NCBI GenBank assembly: GCA_037139335.1
Contig: JBAXGO010000001.1
Coordinates: 4,503 to 68,502, forward strand
Length of the DNA stretch: 64,000 bases
Direction of reading: 5' to 3'
Source of the DNA: a bacterium
GTDB taxonomy: Bacteria > Patescibacteriota > Dojkabacteria > JAOAGR01 > JBAXGO01
Shown: positions 16,890 through 49,747 of the stretch, piece by piece
Layout: each line of letters begins with the position of its first letter
Numbering within the stretch: position 1 is the stretch's first letter
Notes under the pieces: generated by a model
Database searches by the model: none
The model's input: only the letters and a program-made list of their open reading frames with translations
Told to the model about the DNA's origin: nothing
Translations under genes and position numbers: made by a program

Positions 16890-17028
16890 CACGATGCTTT
16901 ATCAAAACTAAAGCGTTTTTCAATAAGGTTTTCTGATTGAAATCCCAAATGATCATTAACAATCTACAAGTGGTAAGAGTGCAATTTGAAACATAATTGC
17001 AAAAATATTTTTTCGTCAATTTATACTA

Positions 17029-18603
<1,575 letters not shown>

Positions 18604-23561: not shown

Positions 23562-26680
<3,119 letters not shown>

Positions 26681-26815
26681 ACAAATTTACGAATTTTTGC
26701 AAAAATTAGCCTGTTCAGTTTCAAAGGAATATATACTGAATTATTAGTGACAAATTAATAATTTAGTGATATACTCCCAGAGTGTTCATACGACAGTTAG
26801 TAATGCTGACTGTTG

Positions 26816-38067: not shown

Positions 38068-38144
38068 CAGGGTATAGCTTAGTTGGCTAAAGCGCCAGGC
38101 TGGGGGTCTGGAGATCGGTGGTTCGAGCCCACTTACCCTGACCA
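38068..38144 (+). tRNA. tRNA-Pro (GGG)
   Basis: Anticodon loop ctGGGgg and a C1:G72 pair. CCA is encoded. Confidence 0.8.
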
Positions 38145-38148
38145 TATA

Positions 38149-38221
38149 GCTTCCGTAGCTCAGGGGATAGAGCGAGGCACTCCTAACGCCTAGGCCGTAG
38201 GTTCGAATCCTACCGGAAGCA
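38149..38221 (+). tRNA. tRNA-Arg (CCU)
   Basis: Anticodon loop ctCCTaa with acceptor stem gcttccg/cggaagc. CCA is not encoded. Confidence 0.8.
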
Positions 38222-38222
38222 A

Positions 38223-39551
38223 TTAATCATTTCCAAATTTAATATATTTTATTTCCGATTTGGAGCCAAAATATATGTAGCTATCAGATCCGTTTTGGGT
38301 CATTAGGAAAGATGTTGATGCATCTTCAGTGACTATATTATCCTGACCTCCAAAATCCGCTAAGTGTATTTTATATTCGCTGTCTGAATAAAAAAACGTA
38401 AATAAATCTGGGAAAACTTGCATGTCTATCGGTGAATATTTTAAGCCTATTGTGAAATATTTATCTTTTGATAATAAACTAATCTTATTTTTTCCTATTA
38501 AGTATGCGGTATTTCGATCCTGAATTTTTATGCTAGATATATTCTTTTCAAATTCTATAATTTTATTTTTATTTAGTTTGTAAATAATGTCGTTATTTAT
38601 TATATAAATGTTTTGATAAAAATATGACATCGAAATATTATTTTTCGCGAATTCGTCGGGTGAATCTACTATTTCTGTTTTATTTTGTGAAACTCCGTCT
38701 ATGCTAAATGTTTCGATATATATTTTATCATTCTCGGCATAAATAATATAAATGTTGTTATTTTCTCCGATCGAATATGATTTTATGCTTCCTGTGAATA
38801 CTAGGTTCTTTTGTACTTTTTGGATATCGCTTATATTGAATGAGTATAATAACTGTTCGTATCTAATAATTAGATAATTATCTCTTAGCTCATATGATGT
38901 TATGGCTCCTGATGGAATTAATGATGATATGTCGCTAAATATGGATTTATTGAAGTCGATTAGCAATGTCTTTTTATCATCGCTTATTAGCACTGAATTA
39001 CCGTTATCGTTGTGTGTTATTTTAATACTTTTACTAAAATCTAGGACGCCCGTAATATTTACACCAACAATTGTACTATCTACATTAAAAAGTGATTTAT
39101 TAAGTGTTAATCTTTCAATGAAAATTTTATTATCTTCTTTAACTGTATAAAACATAAATCTTTCAGAAGTACTTATATTACTTATGTTTTCTCGTATCGA
39201 ATTAATTTTGATATGATTGGGGATTAAAATAGGGCTTATGTATATGACTTCTCCTTGCTTAATATCTACTGAAGTAGTGTAATCCTTTCTGCTATCCTTG
39301 GTTATTTTGAATGTGTAATTTTTTTGATCAAGCTGCTTGAAAGAATGGTTCCTTTCATCCTTATATTTTTCGTTATTAAATAGTACTGTTGTATTATCTT
39401 CTAGATTTTCAATGGTTAGGGCGCCAGTTTGGACGAGAACTTTCTTTTCGAAATCATATTTATAACCTGTCGCAATAATGTATACAATTATTACTATAAG
39501 CAAAAGTAAAAAAAACTCCATTATATTAAAAATATTTTTAAAACGTTTCAT
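38223..39551 (-). CDS. Hypothetical membrane-anchored, beta-rich extracytoplasmic protein
   Basis: N-terminal TM and a 400-aa N/S/I-rich repetitive beta-strand-like sequence. Its stop abuts the tRNA-Arg 3' end. Confidence 0.5.
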   Translation of the reverse strand: MKRFKNIFNIMEFFLLLLIVIIVYIIATGYKYDFEKKVLVQTGALTIENLEDNTTVLFNNEKYKDERNHSFKQLDQKNYTFKITKDSRKDYTTSVDIKQGEVIYISPILIPNHIKINSIRENISNISTSERFMFYTVKEDNKIFIERLTLNKSLFNVDSTIVGVNITGVLDFSKSIKITHNDNGNSVLISDDKKTLLIDFNKSIFSDISSLIPSGAITSYELRDNYLIIRYEQLLYSFNISDIQKVQKNLVFTGSIKSYSIGENNNIYIIYAENDKIYIETFSIDGVSQNKTEIVDSPDEFAKNNISMSYFYQNIYIINNDIIYKLNKNKIIEFEKNISSIKIQDRNTAYLIGKNKISLLSKDKYFTIGLKYSPIDMQVFPDLFTFFYSDSEYKIHLADFGGQDNIVTEDASTSFLMTQNGSDSYIYFGSKSEIKYIKFGND

Positions 39552-39604
39552 CTAAATAATATGATATAATGAAATATATCATTATTTTACCGTAATTTCT
39601 AATA

Positions 39605-40600
39605 ATGTTTCGAAAAACAATAGCGATAGACTTTGGTTCGGTTAAAACAGTAGTTGTCGGAGAAGGAGGGGATATTCTATATCAAGAACCTTCTATCGTT
39701 GCAATTGATAGTATTTCAAATAAGGTAATTGCCATTGGTGAAGAAGCTCAGAAAACAATAGGAAAGACACCAGAAAATATTGCTGTAGCATATCCTATCA
39801 AAGAAGGTGTTATATCTAGTCCTAGAGTAGCAGCCGCTGTACTTTCATATATAATTTCAAAAATTTCAAAAAAAAATCGGTTGTTTAAACCTGATTTAAT
39901 ACTATCTATTCCTGTAGGAATAACTTCAGTTGAGCGTAGAGCTATGTATGAAGCTGGTATGGCTGCAGGAGCTCGAGAAGTTTACCTTGTTCCATCGTTA
40001 TTATGTGCCGCACTTGGCTCGGAAATGGATATTAATTCTGCCTTTGGCAATACAATAATTTCAGTTGGAGGTGGTATTACAGAAATGGGAATAATGTCAT
40101 TGGGAGGGTTAGTTTTATCCAATTCAACTAGGCTTGCAGGTATTAGTATAACTGAGTCTATTATTACTCATATTAAAAAACATCATCAGTTGATTATTGG
40201 CTTTTCTATGGGAGAGATTGTGAAAACTAAGATTGGTAACGCTATTCGAGTTGACGAGCAATTAGAAGTGGAAGTTCGTGGACGTGATGCTACTACTAAT
40301 ATGCCCAAGAATATAGTTTTGCAAACGAATGACATTATTGATGCTATTAAACCTACATTGATGAATATTGTTGTGATGATAAAGCAGATAATGGAAAAAA
40401 CTCCACCAGAATTATCTTCAGATCTTGTTGATGCTGGAGTTATGGTCGCAGGAGGATCTGCTATGTTACCAAATATTGCTTCAGTTTTTACGAAAAGTAT
40501 TGGAGTATCTTTTTATGTTGCTGACAATCCAGCTCTTTTAGTCGCAGAAGGTTTACAACTTATTATTAAACAGCCAGAGCTGTATACAACATATAAATAA
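39605..40600 (+). CDS. Divergent actin-like MreB paralog
   Basis: MreB-like over its whole length (PENIAVAYPIKEGVIS, VERRAMYEAGMAAGAREVYLV, VGGGITEMGIMSLGG), but phosphate-1 is altered (AIDFGSVKT vs GIDLGTANT). Confidence 0.7.
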   Translation: MFRKTIAIDFGSVKTVVVGEGGDILYQEPSIVAIDSISNKVIAIGEEAQKTIGKTPENIAVAYPIKEGVISSPRVAAAVLSYIISKISKKNRLFKPDLILSIPVGITSVERRAMYEAGMAAGAREVYLVPSLLCAALGSEMDINSAFGNTIISVGGGITEMGIMSLGGLVLSNSTRLAGISITESIITHIKKHHQLIIGFSMGEIVKTKIGNAIRVDEQLEVEVRGRDATTNMPKNIVLQTNDIIDAIKPTLMNIVVMIKQIMEKTPPELSSDLVDAGVMVAGGSAMLPNIASVFTKSIGVSFYVADNPALLVAEGLQLIIKQPELYTTYK

Positions 40601-40830
40601 TTAAAAGTTAATAGTTAAACATTAACCATTATTAACTGCATATTACTCCATTCTGAGCTTTGTTCTTTAATACTTTTTTTATGGATTTGTTGATAAAGCT
40701 GTATTACAACTGGTGCAAAATATTCTGTCCTTTTAAAAAAGTCTCGAATTACGAAAGTACAAACTTAGTGCCAGTCGGGTGTCTGTCATCCCAGCGAAAG
40801 CTGGGATCCAGTATTAATCTTATAATCATA

Positions 40831-41091
40831 TTAAACATGAAAAATATCTTTTAAAATATACTTCTGAATAATATATATAATGCCTCCAATTAAATCTTCA
40901 AAAGCCAGAATAAGGTATACTGAATCTTTAAATAGAAGAAATAATATTACTGAAATTAAAAATATTTCAATTACCATTATCTCAAAAATTTTTCTTAGTC
41001 GTCTTCGGGGATTGTGGCGCGAGATATTATCTTTTATTTCAGATTCTATTTCTTGTTGCTTTAAACTCCTTATGTTATTACTTTTTCCCAT
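40831..41091 (-). CDS. Small hypothetical membrane protein
   Basis: 86-aa ORF with one TM. It overlaps the next ORF by 14 nt and may be a single frameshifted gene. Confidence 0.25.
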   Translation of the reverse strand: MGKSNNIRSLKQQEIESEIKDNISRHNPRRRLRKIFEIMVIEIFLISVILFLLFKDSVYLILAFEDLIGGIIYIIQKYILKDIFHV

Positions 41092-41260
41092 ATGCCTTCC
41101 TTATTATCCCTTCAATCTGCTTTGGGTTTAACAATGGGTAGCCAGCGACAACGATGAATATATATCCTTGGTTTAGTAACCAGCTTAGAAAGAATGCTAG
41201 AATGACAATAAAATACATTTGTAACGTTTTTTCTTTAAATTTTGTTTTTCCTACTTCCAT
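41078..41260 (-). CDS. Small hypothetical membrane protein
   Basis: 60-aa ORF with one TM. Palindromes lie in its upstream region. Confidence 0.25.
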   Translation of the reverse strand: MEVGKTKFKEKTLQMYFIVILAFFLSWLLNQGYIFIVVAGYPLLNPKQIEGIIRKAYGKK

Positions 41261-45633: not shown

Positions 45634-46695
45634 ATGCCAAGAGATTTAATAGATTTTTTTTGGAAACTCTTCACAGATGATATTGGTATAGATTTGGGAA
45701 CTGCAAATACTAAGATTGCCCTGCGAAACGAGGGGATTGTGGCTACCGAACCAACTGTAGTTGCAATTAACAAGAAAACTAAACAAATATTAAGTGTTGG
45801 CACTGAAGCCAAAAAAATGATTGGCAGGACTCCTGCCAACATTATTGCCATACGTCCTCTAAAAGATGGAGTAGTGTCCGATTTTGACGCTACCCGTGAT
45901 ATGATTCAGCATTTTATAGAATTAGCTTATGGCCGTTCTACAAAAATAATTAAAATTCCTCGTCCTAGAGTTGTTATTGGTATACCTTCCACAGCTACTG
46001 AAGTTGGCAAAAAAGCGGTCAAAGATGCTGCTAAAAGTGCAGGTGCTAGACAAGCATTTGTTATAGAAGAACCAATGGCTGCCGCTATAGGTGCTGGTCT
46101 TCCAATAACCGAACCTCAAGGAAGCATGATAGTTGATATTGGTGGTGGTACTACTGACATAGCGATAATTTCACTAGGAGGTATTGTTGTTGATAAAACA
46201 ATACAAATTGCTGGTGATGAGATGGATCAAGAAATCGTTAATTATGTTCGACATAAATATAATATTATTATTGGTGAAAGAATAGCTGAAGATATCAAAA
46301 TCAAGATAGGTTCTGCATATGAAACAGGTGATAATAAAACAGCAGAAGTAAGAGGACGAGATCTGGTTGATGGCATGCCAAAAGTTTTGATATTAACATC
46401 ACTTGAAATTAGAGAAGCCATAACAGTACAACTAAAGGCTATCACAGAAGCTATTTCTATAGCCTTGGAAGAAGCCCCTCCAGAACTCTTATCAGATATT
46501 GGTGAAAAGGGAATTATTTTAGCAGGTGGTGGAGCCATGATTCCAGGTCTTGCCAAATTTTGTGAGGAACGTGTTAAAATCAAATGTATAGTAGCTGATG
46601 ATCCTATTACATGTGTTGTAAAAGGCACTCAGATGCTACTTGAAGATATTGATTTGCTTTCAAAAGTCCAAGTAGATAAGGATGAACTTATATAA
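45634..46695 (+). CDS. mreB: Rod shape-determining protein MreB (canonical)
   Basis: GIDLGTANT, the phosphate-2 motif and DIGGGTTD. Confidence 0.92.
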   Translation: MPRDLIDFFWKLFTDDIGIDLGTANTKIALRNEGIVATEPTVVAINKKTKQILSVGTEAKKMIGRTPANIIAIRPLKDGVVSDFDATRDMIQHFIELAYGRSTKIIKIPRPRVVIGIPSTATEVGKKAVKDAAKSAGARQAFVIEEPMAAAIGAGLPITEPQGSMIVDIGGGTTDIAIISLGGIVVDKTIQIAGDEMDQEIVNYVRHKYNIIIGERIAEDIKIKIGSAYETGDNKTAEVRGRDLVDGMPKVLILTSLEIREAITVQLKAITEAISIALEEAPPELLSDIGEKGIILAGGGAMIPGLAKFCEERVKIKCIVADDPITCVVKGTQMLLEDIDLLSKVQVDKDELI

Positions 46696-47467
46696 AAGTC
46701 CTAAAATAAATAATATCAGAGGAATACTTTTTGTATTATGTTTAGTTATCGTTTTACTCTCTTATGCGGGATTTTTCCGTATTATTCCTATACTAGATAT
46801 TTTTTCAACTACTATTGGGCAAACTATTACTGATATGAAAAAAGCATCGTCAAGTTTTTTTTCAAAATTTGAAGACAATGAAAAATTAGTGACAGAAAAT
46901 ATAGAACTAAGGAAAGAAATTATCAAAAAGGATGTAGATATTCAAAATATTAAAGATAGTGTTAAAGATCTTGAATCTGTAAAAAAATTACTAAACTTTT
47001 ATAATCCCAAAGCGGATATTATAGTAACTAAAAATATTTCTATTGTGCCATCAGATAAAGTTCCAGTTAAGATTACTATCGATAAAGGATTGAAGAATGG
47101 AATTAAAGAAGGGAAGGCTGTTTTTAACGATAGTGGTAGTTTAATCGGAAAAATATATGTAGCTAGAGAATATAGTTCTGATATTTTGCCATATTATGTA
47201 ATTGATAATATTAAATTACCTATAAAAAGTACTTCGACATCGACCGCTTTAGTCGATGGATATAAGGACGGGCTTGTTGTTTGTACAGATATAGGATTGG
47301 AAACAACAGTTAAGGAAGGGGATTTATTTTTCACTTCTTCTTTAGGAGATCAGGTTTCAGAAGGTATATATGTAGGGAAAGTTGTGAAAATTTCTGCGGA
47401 CGACAAAAAGAAATTTTATCTAGAAGCTGATATCTTAAATGTTGATATTTTGTACGTATATCTATGA
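46682..47467 (+). CDS. mreC: Rod shape-determining protein MreC
   Basis: N-terminal TM, a coiled coil and a beta domain. Its position after mreB supports the call. Confidence 0.6.
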   Translation: MNLYKSPKINNIRGILFVLCLVIVLLSYAGFFRIIPILDIFSTTIGQTITDMKKASSSFFSKFEDNEKLVTENIELRKEIIKKDVDIQNIKDSVKDLESVKKLLNFYNPKADIIVTKNISIVPSDKVPVKITIDKGLKNGIKEGKAVFNDSGSLIGKIYVAREYSSDILPYYVIDNIKLPIKSTSTSTALVDGYKDGLVVCTDIGLETTVKEGDLFFTSSLGDQVSEGIYVGKVVKISADDKKKFYLEADILNVDILYVYL

Positions 47468-47919
47468 TACTAAAAGTTTTTATAATTATATTATTTCTTT
47501 TATGGGGATTTGTTGATAAATCTATGGATTTACAACTTTTCGGATATAGTCTTTTTATAGGTCAATTCGTATATTTATCACTTTTATTAATTCTTAGAAA
47601 TAAGGATTTTTACTCAATATGTGGTTTTTTTTATTTCTTATCATTAGGATCAAGTTTGAATATCATTGGTTTTTTGCCTCTGATGATGCTAATTCTTGAA
47701 TCAATATTTTTTCTTGCTATAACTTTTTTATATTCAAAAAATAGAACTATATATTTTATTATTTGTCTTGTATTCTTTATTCTTAATTATTTTTTGACTA
47801 TATATCTTATGAGTGATTATAGGATGAATTTGTCGTATAATATTTTTATAGTCCTTATCCTCGTAGGACTCGTTGGTGGTGCAATATCAATATTCTCACA
47901 TAAACCTAATGAAAGATAA
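47464..47919 (+). CDS. mreD: Rod shape-determining protein MreD
   Basis: Small polytopic membrane protein between mreC and PBP2. Confidence 0.5.
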   Translation: MILKVFIIILFLLWGFVDKSMDLQLFGYSLFIGQFVYLSLLLILRNKDFYSICGFFYFLSLGSSLNIIGFLPLMMLILESIFFLAITFLYSKNRTIYFIICLVFFILNYFLTIYLMSDYRMNLSYNIFIVLILVGLVGGAISIFSHKPNER

Positions 47920-49747
47920 GATCTTTACTACAATATTAACGCTTGTGCTACTTTTTGTTGTTGCTCTGTCTTCATTTAATATACAAATGATACAAGGTGC
48001 ACAATTAAGGAATGATTCTGTGTCAAAATTCAGAATGGAATATATTAAAGCTTCAAGAGGTCTAATATTTGATCGAAACGGCAAACCACTTGTTCAAAAT
48101 AAATCATCATTTACATTATATTTAGAACCCTTAGTTATATCAGATTATAACCAGTTAAAAGCATCTATAACATCTATTGAAACATCAGAAATCGAATATA
48201 TCGATAAAAAATATAATGAAGTTTTGGATATTCAAAAATTTAACAATGGTTTAGTAGGCAATGACAAAAAAAATGAAAAAATTATTCCAGATAGAATACT
48301 AATTGATAAAAATTTTAACAATCCTATCTTTATAACTCAATATTTATCTGATCCTTCAAGATACAAAGGATTAAGGCTTGAAGAAGAATCACAAAGAGTA
48401 TATCTGCAAAAGGAATTAACAGCTCATTTGATCGGTTATACTGGAGAAGTTGTTGATGAGATTAATCTTGGTTATAGACCAAATACTGAAATAGGAAAAG
48501 CTGGCGTTGAATTATCATATGACTCACTTCTTCGTGGAAATGATGGCAAAGTTTCCGTGGATACTGATACTCAAAAAAGAAATATTGAATCATCTCCAGT
48601 TAATGGTAAAAACTTATACTTATCTGTAGATATTGATATTCAAAAGAGCTTATATGATATTTTGAAATCAGGTATGGAAGAATATAAGGCGACAGGTGCT
48701 GCAGGACTTTTACAGGATGTTAATACAGGAGAAGTTTTGGCTTATATATCACTTCCTTCTTATGATGATAATTTATTTGTTGGTGGAATTGGTAATAATG
48801 ATTTTGATAAATTAAATAAAGATCCGAATTCTCCAATGCTGGATAGAATTATTGATGGCACGTATCCTCCAGGTTCAGACTTCAAATTGAATACGGCAAC
48901 AGCTTTGCTGGAAACTGGTTCTATAACCAAAGATACTATGTTTCCTACTGGTGGATTATTTAAATTTGGTGATGTTACATTTAGAGATTTTTCAAATATT
49001 AATCAAGGAACGCTCGATGTTGTAGGTGGTTTGTGTAGGTCAAGTAATATCTTTTTTATGAAATCCACTCTTCAAATGGATGACTATACCAAGGGACTGG
49101 CTATTAATAAAATTATTGAATATGGATCCCGATATGGCTTAGGTAAAAAAACTGGTATCGATATGCCTGAAGGTTATCCTGGATATATTTCATCTCCTTC
49201 AATTAAAAAAGAATTAACAGGTGAAGAATGGCTCACAGGAGATTTATTAAATGCTTCAATCGGACAAGGGTATACTTTATTATCACCAATACAAGTGCAG
49301 ACAATGGTTACTGCAATTGCAAATGGAGGTAATGTTCTGCAACCTAGAGTTGTAATGGCTACGAATGATAGTCTTGAGGATAGTACAAAGACAAAAACCT
49401 CGCCAATTATAAGAAATAGTATTAATGTTTCAAAAAACACTTTAGATATTATTAAAGAAGGTATGTATTGTGGTGTGCATACTGGAATTATTCAGGATAT
49501 GAATTCATCGTTTGTACAAGTAGCTGCTAAATCTGGAACGGCTGAATTTGGTGCTCCAGATCCTGCTACTGGAGCTTATCCTAATAGGCATGGGTGGGTA
49601 ACAGGTTATTTCCCATATGATAATCCCAAATATTCATTTACATTACTTTTAGAGAAAGGGGGAAGCAGTGGTAATACAGTTAAAGTCGCTAGAAAGTTTA
49701 TAGATTGGCTTTATAAAGATTATAAAATTAATGAGAAAATAAAATGA
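47873..49747 (+). CDS. mrdA: Penicillin-binding protein 2 (peptidoglycan D,D-transpeptidase)
   Basis: N-terminal TM, a dimerisation domain and transpeptidase motifs (SDFK, KSG). The start may instead be the ATG at 47909. Confidence 0.85.
   Translation: MVVQYQYSHINLMKDKIFTTILTLVLLFVVALSSFNIQMIQGAQLRNDSVSKFRMEYIKASRGLIFDRNGKPLVQNKSSFTLYLEPLVISDYNQLKASITSIETSEIEYIDKKYNEVLDIQKFNNGLVGNDKKNEKIIPDRILIDKNFNNPIFITQYLSDPSRYKGLRLEEESQRVYLQKELTAHLIGYTGEVVDEINLGYRPNTEIGKAGVELSYDSLLRGNDGKVSVDTDTQKRNIESSPVNGKNLYLSVDIDIQKSLYDILKSGMEEYKATGAAGLLQDVNTGEVLAYISLPSYDDNLFVGGIGNNDFDKLNKDPNSPMLDRIIDGTYPPGSDFKLNTATALLETGSITKDTMFPTGGLFKFGDVTFRDFSNINQGTLDVVGGLCRSSNIFFMKSTLQMDDYTKGLAINKIIEYGSRYGLGKKTGIDMPEGYPGYISSPSIKKELTGEEWLTGDLLNASIGQGYTLLSPIQVQTMVTAIANGGNVLQPRVVMATNDSLEDSTKTKTSPIIRNSINVSKNTLDIIKEGMYCGVHTGIIQDMNSSFVQVAAKSGTAEFGAPDPATGAYPNRHGWVTGYFPYDNPKYSFTLLLEKGGSSGNTVKVARKFIDWLYKDYKINEKIK

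Follow-up and report, generated by a model that had tools for sequence, protein, structure and literature searches.

Why should a genome that holds a complete mreBCD-PBP2 operon also hold a second gene for an MreB-family actin, and why does that gene stand back to back with one for a large membrane protein? The question is raised by a stretch of 64,000 nucleotides (here, the window) from contig JBAXGO010000001.1 of assembly GCA_037139335.1, which belongs to a bacterium of the Dojkabacteria lineage of the Patescibacteriota. MreB biology has been worked out in a few model organisms, where the filament is coupled to wall synthesis via RodZ, MreC/D, RodA, and PBP2. The Patescibacteria, also termed the candidate phyla radiation (CPR), are ultra-small, mostly uncultured, and often episymbiotic. 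In the window, an open reading frame (ORF) for a 331-aa MreB on the forward strand and one for a 442-aa protein on the reverse strand diverge from a spacer of 53 bp, exactly as a first-pass annotation of the sequence had reported (Table 1). The MreB is of the CPR type and catalytically degenerate; its conserved, uncharacterized partner has a transmembrane helix followed by a PEGA-type domain and a β-propeller, and the arrangement is more general than the window.

The 331-aa protein is a true MreB with a predicted four-subdomain actin fold. This is evident from its match to Pfam MreB_Mbl (PF06723; E = 1.1e-95, 320.7 bits, residues 4-324) and from NCBIfam NF010539, which it passes with 320 bits against a cut-off of 293. 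It fails the stricter TIGR00904 'mreB' model (304 bits against a cut-off of 365.75), on which the mreBCD-linked MreB of the window scores 425. A phmmer alignment to Thermotoga maritima MreB (1JCE) spans residues 1-323 (E = 1e-69) and is ungapped across the nucleotide-binding motifs. The AlphaFold2 (AF2) model of the protein, with a mean predicted local distance difference test score (pLDDT) of 75.6, returned only MreB and Mbl among its top 25 Foldseek matches (template modeling [TM] scores 0.79-0.87); MamK came next (0.63-0.72), and BeeR, DnaK, and Arp lay far behind.

The nucleotide-binding site of this MreB departs from the norm. The first-pass annotation had based this claim on a phosphate-1 motif that reads AIDFGSVKT instead of the GIDLGTANT of the mreBCD-linked copy. 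Both motifs were read in the respective proteins, and the alteration is real and stronger than had been claimed. Phosphate-1 itself retains the D, G, and S of D-x-G-[ST], while in phosphate-2 (ISVGGGITE) the GGG is retained and the Asp has been replaced by Ser. Additionally, the catalytic Glu has changed to Ser (LVPSLLC versus LIEEPMA) and the Thr to Ile (GGGITE versus GGGTTE), such that the core motif reads S...I-T-E in place of E...T-X-[D/E], with two of its three residues lost and the final E retained. The adenosine motif is retained. These S/I/S states at the catalytic positions are common to all close relatives (68-72% identity) and to the MreB of locus L007 (48%). The mreBCD-linked MreB of the window has the full catalytic motif. 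The ATPase core E...T-X-[D/E] corresponds to E140, T167, and E169 of Caulobacter crescentus MreB and is kept in 95.8% of non-Spiroplasma MreBs; Spiroplasma MreB3 is without it, which accounts for slow release of inorganic phosphate (Pi) by a protein that still forms filaments (PMC9597168).

Each of the two MreBs of the window has a predicted membrane device, and the devices differ. T. maritima MreB binds the membrane through L93 and F94 (PMC3163269). At this position the 331-aa MreB reads RLFKP, with the two hydrophobic residues kept across its clade, and a predicted T. maritima–type membrane-insertion loop is thereby retained. The mreBCD-linked MreB is without the L-F loop pair; its N terminus carries an extension (MPRDLIDFFWKLFT) of the gram-negative type.

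Among characterized proteins, Spiroplasma MreB3 (SpeMreB3, PDB 7E1C/7E1G) invites comparison. It too belongs to the MreB family, is without E...T-X-[D/E], and coexists with a catalytically complete MreB, and the model of the 331-aa protein superposes on it with a TM score of ~0.84. However, the substitutions are not the same: MreB3 has D/K/S, whereas the 331-aa MreB has S/I with the final E kept, plus the Asp to Ser change in phosphate-2. The settings differ as well, as MreB3 comes from wall-less swimming Mollicutes and has an N-terminal amphipathic helix, whereas the 331-aa MreB has the T. maritima–type loop and is encoded in the same genome as mreCD, PBP2, and genes for peptidoglycan. There is no specific kinship between the two, since phmmer gives 9e-50 to MreB3 and, as noted above, a far better match to T. 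maritima MreB.

A gene that has lost catalytic residues might be a duplicate decaying into a pseudogene, and at one related locus (L006:5741-6696) the degenerate MreB is in fact broken into ORFs of 89 and 231 aa, by a frameshift or an assembly error. We reject decay as extremely improbable. In comparisons of the 331-aa MreB with its relatives, the proportion of nonsynonymous differences (pN) is 0.17-0.21 and that of synonymous differences (pS) is ~0.7, with synonymous sites saturated. Since pN is far below pS, the gene is under purifying selection. Moreover, the ORF is intact in all relatives but L006, with 67-72% identity among them, the S, I, and S substitutions are themselves conserved across the clade, and the fold is predicted to be intact.

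The origin of the two MreBs was examined in a neighbor-joining tree built from Kimura distances with 100 bootstraps. In it, the mreBCD-linked MreB forms a bootstrap-100 group with MreBs of a deltaproteobacterium and of WOR-1 and with the metagenomic protein P0083, and this group is nested among conventional MreBs, whose cluster has a bootstrap of 84. The 331-aa MreB falls into a bootstrap-99 clade with L007, L008, L009, and P0023, which sits among other Patescibacteria (CPR)-type MreBs, many of them linked to a partner gene. Because the tree puts the paired gene among CPR-type MreBs and the mreBCD copy among conventional ones, the paired gene may be the original CPR-type MreB of the lineage, strongly diverged, rather than a recent duplicate. 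What had been annotated as a second MreB paralog is thus a divergent but true MreB, while the word paralog may miscast a gene that is perhaps the original copy. According to a study of MreB diversity, CPR MreBs form a radiation of their own with two clades, some species have both, and different roles have been suggested for the two MreB types (Takahashi, Fujiwara & Miyata 2020; bioRxiv 10.1101/2020.05.13.095042). The window fits this picture in having one CPR-type and one conventional-type MreB. The passages on CPR in that study make no mention of a conserved neighbor or of catalytic-site changes in CPR MreBs.

With both MreBs encoded within 6 kb and the actin fold preserved in the model, the degenerate protein could instead be a co-polymerizing or capping subunit that cannot hydrolyze ATP and modulates the conventional MreB, the membrane partner being irrelevant. 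Hydrolysis-deficient subunits that stabilize mixed filaments are a familiar idea for actin-like proteins. We nevertheless consider this quite unlikely: the 331-aa MreB and the other MreB of the window (45634-46695) are just 32% identical, they carry the different membrane devices described above, they come from different MreB radiations, and many contigs with a paired MreB show no conventional mreBCD nearby.

The 442-aa partner was harder to place. It matches no Pfam family at E<=0.01 and no NCBIfam model, and word-indexed searches among 5.8 billion proteins yielded no more than 2-3 relatives. An exhaustive profile search returned 840 relatives at E<=1e-3, only five of them below 1e-30. Many of the distant relatives are 430-480 aa long and align end to end; in these, a PEGA domain (PF08308) comes straight after the N-terminal transmembrane helix and is followed by weak propeller matches. 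An N-terminal signature, the juxtamembrane motif G-[YF]-x-[FY]-D...T-G, is found family-wide, and hhalign relates the partner of the window to that of L007 with a probability of 97%.

The AF2 model of the partner (pLDDT 82.4, predicted TM score 0.71) gives a single transmembrane helix, a degenerate PEGA-like β-sandwich, and an eight-bladed β-propeller (Table 1). The first-pass description of a β-rich, N-terminally anchored protein is borne out, and of the two folds it had proposed, β-propeller or β-helix, structure prediction gives the former. At the sandwich, the P-x-G-A of the family consensus reads E-D-N-T in the window partner, which, unlike PEGA proteins proper, lies below the Pfam detection threshold. 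Its close relative P0124 scores 15.8 bits against a gathering threshold of 20.8, and distant relatives score 38-54 bits at the same position. Other features are constrained: Glu12 in the transmembrane helix is invariant within the close clade, and a C-terminal propeller motif, H-[LV]-A-D-x-G-G-Q-D-N-I, is conserved within the clade. The partner shows a pN of 0.40-0.46 and a pS of 0.69-0.78 against its relatives. Judged by profile matches and these rates, the partner is a fast-evolving member of a large transmembrane-PEGA-propeller family. The N-terminal tail has a family-wide median of 7 aa, 3 K/R, and 0 D/E; by the positive-inside rule it would face the cytoplasm, and the propeller is predicted to lie outside the cell.

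Known envelope proteins were considered as identities for the partner and rejected. RodZ does not fit, as the cytoplasmic part of the partner is ~9 residues, has no helix-turn-helix (HTH) domain, and gives no Pfam match. MreC (PF04085) likewise fails for want of a Pfam or NCBIfam match and on fold, which is a PEGA-like sandwich plus propeller. BamB is an eight-bladed envelope propeller, but its defining features are absent from the partner, which lacks a lipoprotein signal and is unrelated to BamB in sequence (8-10% identity in structural alignments). In general architecture, the pair would resemble MreB-RodZ and MreB-MreC/MreD, in which a membrane-associated filament works with bitopic proteins whose bulk is outside the cytoplasm, and MreC shares the topology of the partner, with a short N-terminal tail, one transmembrane helix, and a β-rich ectodomain. 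Unlike RodZ and MreC, the partner has neither a cytoplasmic HTH nor an MreC domain and carries the sandwich and propeller as its ectodomain; unlike the genes of the elongasome operon, those for MreB and the partner are divergent.

To what extent the two genes belong together is evident from their distribution. All fetched loci were scanned with a family hidden Markov model built from 92 members. The pair is present at every close relative with readable context (L001, L002-L005, L006, L010, and the P0005 contig), but these loci are fully syntenic, and their shared pair by itself therefore proves little. More telling are loci with different flanks that retain it, namely L007, with an MreB of 48% identity, and L011, with an MreB of 44% identity and a partner with a clear PEGA domain. 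A scan of GTDB with the MreB alignment, in which the close (~70% identity) clade was not among the species representatives, found an oppositely oriented family member upstream of MreB in 12 of 12 Patescibacteria-type loci, from Dojkabacteria, Saccharibacteria-labelled, 'Patescibacteria group', and two other metagenome-assembled genomes, as against none of 68 loci from other phyla. Among the matches listed, a metagenome scan added at least about 20 paired loci and at least one further close lineage. Altogether, the two genes are divergent at 36 of 36 loci where they co-occur, again among the matches listed (31 loci without identical copies). Neither mreC nor PBP2 was seen near the paired MreB at any paired locus. 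The pairing is thus conserved well beyond close relatives, and the 331-aa MreB does not cluster tightly with ordinary MreB duplicates. In the literature on PEGA with MreB, or on CPR with MreB, no description of the pair was found.

Pairing goes together with an altered catalytic site. The complete set (phosphate-2 Asp plus E...T-X-[D/E]) is found in 32 of 41 mreC/PBP2-linked MreBs and in 57 of 79 other MreBs but, among the matches listed, in none of the 36 paired MreBs. The 36 deviate in different ways, with Asp changed to Asn in 14, Thr changed to Ala or Ser in 13, and a triple change of Glu, Asp, and Thr in 9. A paired MreB of 37% identity to the 331-aa protein (L156:2567-4972) has Ser/Ser/Leu at the Glu/Asp/Thr positions (INKSVMA, IISIGAGLTEV), which could reflect either a separate loss event or deep kinship with the window clade. 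Features of the partner tail follow the MreB type to some degree: in the window clade and in L007 the transmembrane helix starts with a Glu, the Asp to Asn group has long Lys-rich tails, and the Thr to Ala group has 5-residue tails. These hints are too faint to be taken as co-evolution.

Conserved adjacency might mean that the genes share a neighborhood and a regulatory region and nothing else, the propeller being a general envelope factor and the MreB independent of it. Consistent with this, the distant family members P0126 and P0141 are divergently paired with murA, not mreB, and murA and mreB often adjoin each other in Firmicutes loci. The murA pairings suggest a tie of the family to cell-wall synthesis generally and not exclusively to MreB. 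The cytoplasmic tail of the partner is minimal, and those Dojkabacteria-type loci that were checked carry trpS between the MreB and partner genes, with the neighborhood still kept. On the other hand, mere neighborhood accounts poorly for a divergent adjacency at 36 of 36 loci, among MreBs only 37-48% identical to the 331-aa protein, when all other flanks have changed, for a deviant catalytic site in every paired MreB, and for the joint drift of both proteins from the family consensus in the window lineage. On balance, mere proximity is somewhat unlikely.

The spacer between the two genes contains a perfect inverted repeat, atgatata-N6-tatatcat, which the first-pass annotation had described as operator-like. 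The repeat is present as reported, but each arm coincides with a predicted extended -10 box, of type TGnTATAAT on the MreB side and TGnTATATT, in the opposite direction, on the partner side. TGnTATAAT is found at the same place upstream of MreB in L001, L002, and L006 and is present in L010. Equivalents of the partner-side box are TGTTATATT in L002, TGATATTAT in L001, and TGCTATATG in L010; spacings differ, with a gap between the opposed boxes of 2 bp in the window, 5 bp in L001, and ~36 bp in L010. Of the 12 TGNTATAAT sites in the window, most lie shortly before a same-strand gene. The window, L001, and L002 share a conserved 5ʹ leader, ...AATTTCTAATA-ATG, and the spacers of the window and L002 are alike over their whole length, without special conservation of the palindrome arms. 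As synonymous sites are saturated between these lineages, such similarity marks the spacer as functional DNA. On the simplest reading, both genes would be driven by a pair of interleaved extended -10 promoters that face in opposite directions, each of which overlaps the predicted start site of the other, and the promoters would create the apparent palindrome.

The other explanation considered for the 8-N6-8 palindrome is an operator, through which a dimeric transcription factor would control both genes. In its favor, the perfect repeat overlaps both predicted -10 boxes and start sites, and the L002 lineage has a perfect repeat of the same geometry (atgttata-N6-tataacat), whose two arms differ from those of the window by symmetric A/T to T/A exchanges. 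These fall at the unconstrained 'n' position of the boxes. In a comparison covering five lineages, no lineage but the window and L002 has the repeat in perfect form, and it is absent or imperfect in L001, L006, and L007; L001, L006, L007, and L010 are without symmetry or have another spacing, while boxes of type TGnTATAAT are kept. Moreover, such repeats are not unusual in A+T-rich DNA. Perfect repeats with arms >=8 and loop <=12 were counted at 64 positions in the window, compared with 22-42 in Markov simulations. Its 9.5 kb of intergenic DNA contain about a dozen distinct ones, and by a rough estimate a 53-bp spacer of 85% A+T has a 10-15% chance of one; the palindrome alone is therefore not significant. 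The 64-kb window has no second copy of it, no regulator gene adjoins the pair, and the similarity of the window and L002 extends beyond the arms. An operator is thus rejected as the primary explanation and is very unlikely to be present.

What would the two proteins do? In our judgment, there is an even chance that they form a conserved Patescibacteria-type two-gene module, in which a slowly hydrolyzing, membrane-bound MreB scaffold is coupled or co-regulated with an envelope propeller protein. Its components would be an MreB-family actin unlinked to mreCD and a divergently encoded bitopic protein with a short basic tail, a PEGA-type sandwich, and an eight-bladed propeller ectodomain. Because Glu, Thr, and Asp are lost while the phosphate glycines, the adenosine motif, and the insertion loop are kept, the 331-aa MreB is predicted to bind ATP and membrane and to polymerize, with very slow phosphate release, by analogy with Spiroplasma MreB3 and general actin-fold enzymology. 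It would act as a long-lived scaffold, not as a dynamic filament. The partner would take part in assembly of the cell wall or envelope from the extracellular side of the membrane, and it would be coupled to the MreB scaffold in expression and perhaps also in position; conservation of the neighborhood, the murA pairings, and topology point to such an envelope role and to co-regulation. The mreBCD-PBP2 operon, ~5 kb off, presumably covers ordinary elongasome function.

Several points weigh against this proposal. The 36 paired loci represent perhaps ten lineages and are not independent events. The sister MreB clade of L008 and L009, which is also without the catalytic Glu, has no propeller neighbor, and some distant partner relatives stand by murA, as mentioned above. 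Deep nodes of the neighbor-joining tree are weakly supported, and monophyly of the partner-linked MreBs is therefore not claimed. ATP binding, polymerization, and slow hydrolysis are extrapolated from MreB3, whose substitutions differ. Finally, RodZ has an MreB-binding HTH domain, whereas the cytoplasmic part of the partner is confined to ~9 residues. Direct contact between MreB and the partner is the weakest step, because only these residues and the transmembrane helix are available for it.

A bolder form of the proposal is a trans-membrane module, in which the MreB filament is physically joined via the tail and transmembrane helix of the partner to wall synthesis, surface-layer organization, or host attachment, having become, in this lineage, a non-hydrolyzing static scaffold after a conventional mreBCD-PBP2 set took over elongation. 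We consider this form unlikely; if true, it would be a Patescibacteria cytoskeletal module not described before. The first-pass annotation had likened the locus to specialized systems of an actin-like paralog and a dedicated membrane partner. The pairing is upheld by its conservation, the operator part is unsupported, and physical coupling is a proposal.

Table 1. Coordinates of the divergent pair, its predicted domains and promoters, and other features (positions in the window unless a locus is given).
Feature	Position	Strand	Basis
MreB-family actin (331 aa)	39605..40600	+	Pfam MreB_Mbl, phmmer, AF2 and Foldseek
Partner gene, bitopic membrane protein (442 aa), transmembrane-PEGA-β-propeller family	38223..39551	-	Profile search, AF2
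Partner, predicted cytoplasmic N-terminal tail, aa 1-9, MKRFKNIFN, three basic residues	39525..39551	-	Sequence
Partner, predicted transmembrane helix, ~aa 10-28	39468..39524	-	AF2 helix at residues 2-28
Partner, degenerate PEGA-like β-sandwich, aa 30-105	39237..39464	-	AF2 strands; PEGA matches at equivalent residues in relatives
Partner, predicted eight-bladed β-propeller ectodomain, aa 115-439, 32 strands	38235..39209	-	AF2 model
Divergent promoter spacer, 53 bp, 15% G+C	39552..39604		Sequence
Perfect inverted repeat atgatata-N6-tatatcat	39561..39582		Sequence
Extended -10 box TGATATAAT, predicted MreB-side promoter, left palindrome arm	39562..39570	+	TGnTATAAT conservation
Extended -10-like box TGATATATT, predicted partner promoter, right palindrome arm	39573..39581	-	Promoter scan, TG upstream
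Conventional mreB, mreC, mreD-like, PBP2 operon	45634..49747	+	Pfam for MreB, MreC, PBP2
Family members with murA (UDP-GlcNAc enolpyruvyl transferase)	L169:53-1312, L170, L171:1-834		

The surroundings of the pair differ from those of the conventional operon. The 331-aa MreB gene is flanked by the partner gene and by small ORFs and rplL, and the linkage to mreC, mreD, and PBP2 that the copy at 45634 has is absent. The operon that the first-pass annotation had called mreBCD-PBP2 is confirmed by Pfam for MreB, MreC, and PBP2. The gene in the mreD position encodes a polytopic membrane protein of 151 aa with zero matches in Pfam or NCBIfam. About 190 bp downstream of the 331-aa MreB gene lies a hairpin without a T tract (ATCCCAGC-GAAA-GCTGGGAT, 40788-40807), and past it are two small predicted membrane ORFs on the reverse strand (40831-41091 and 41078-41260). 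In L002 (7009-7659; also in L003-L005, L092, and L093), a gene for a 216-aa Pkinase/RIO1-like protein begins 10 bp past the degenerate MreB, where the window has only small ORFs. On the other side of the pair, two forward-strand tRNA genes (38068-38141 and 38149-38221) are convergent with the 442-aa gene and end 1 base before its stop codon. Elsewhere in the window, the genes for 16S rRNA (17022-18603) and 23S rRNA (23562-26684) are ~5 kb apart, with ORFs and two tRNAs intervening, and the 23S match of 3123 nt to a 2925-nt model suggests an insertion. The unlinked rRNA genes, the gene content, and the nearest relatives (metagenome-assembled genomes from Dojkabacteria, Saccharibacteria-labelled, and 'Patescibacteria group') all point to a member of the Patescibacteria.

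Related loci offer further observations. In Dojkabacteria-type loci, a MATCAP-family gene (PF08014, 'microtubule-associated tyrosine carboxypeptidase', E 1e-27 to 1e-31) follows the partner-linked MreB (L013:6509-7672, L017:8519-9688, L026:7069-8235), and several genes for RimK/TTL-like ATP-grasp ligases adjoin it. A set of amino-acid ligases and a carboxypeptidase beside an actin homologue is curious, and the window is without it. The sister MreB clade lies near SdrD_B-domain surface proteins (L008:38-1342, L009:4167-5966) whose C termini consist of LPNTG, then a hydrophobic stretch, and last a basic tail, resembling a sortase signal; in L009, the gene for such a protein is directly upstream of MreB on the same strand. 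Additionally, metagenome loci L101, L116, L135, L139, L155, and L163 have the order mreC-...-PBP2-mreB on one strand, the reverse of the usual mreBCD-PBP2 order.

The locus is a clear example of how opposed extended -10 promoters can mimic an operator. The changes among paired MreBs, from Asp to Asn and Thr to Ala or Ser to the triple loss of Glu, Thr, and Asp, form a natural series on what ATP hydrolysis adds to MreB, and this series extends knowledge that has so far come mainly from Spiroplasma MreB3. For the Patescibacteria, the pair of an MreB and an ectodomain propeller is a testable candidate for a link from filament to envelope.

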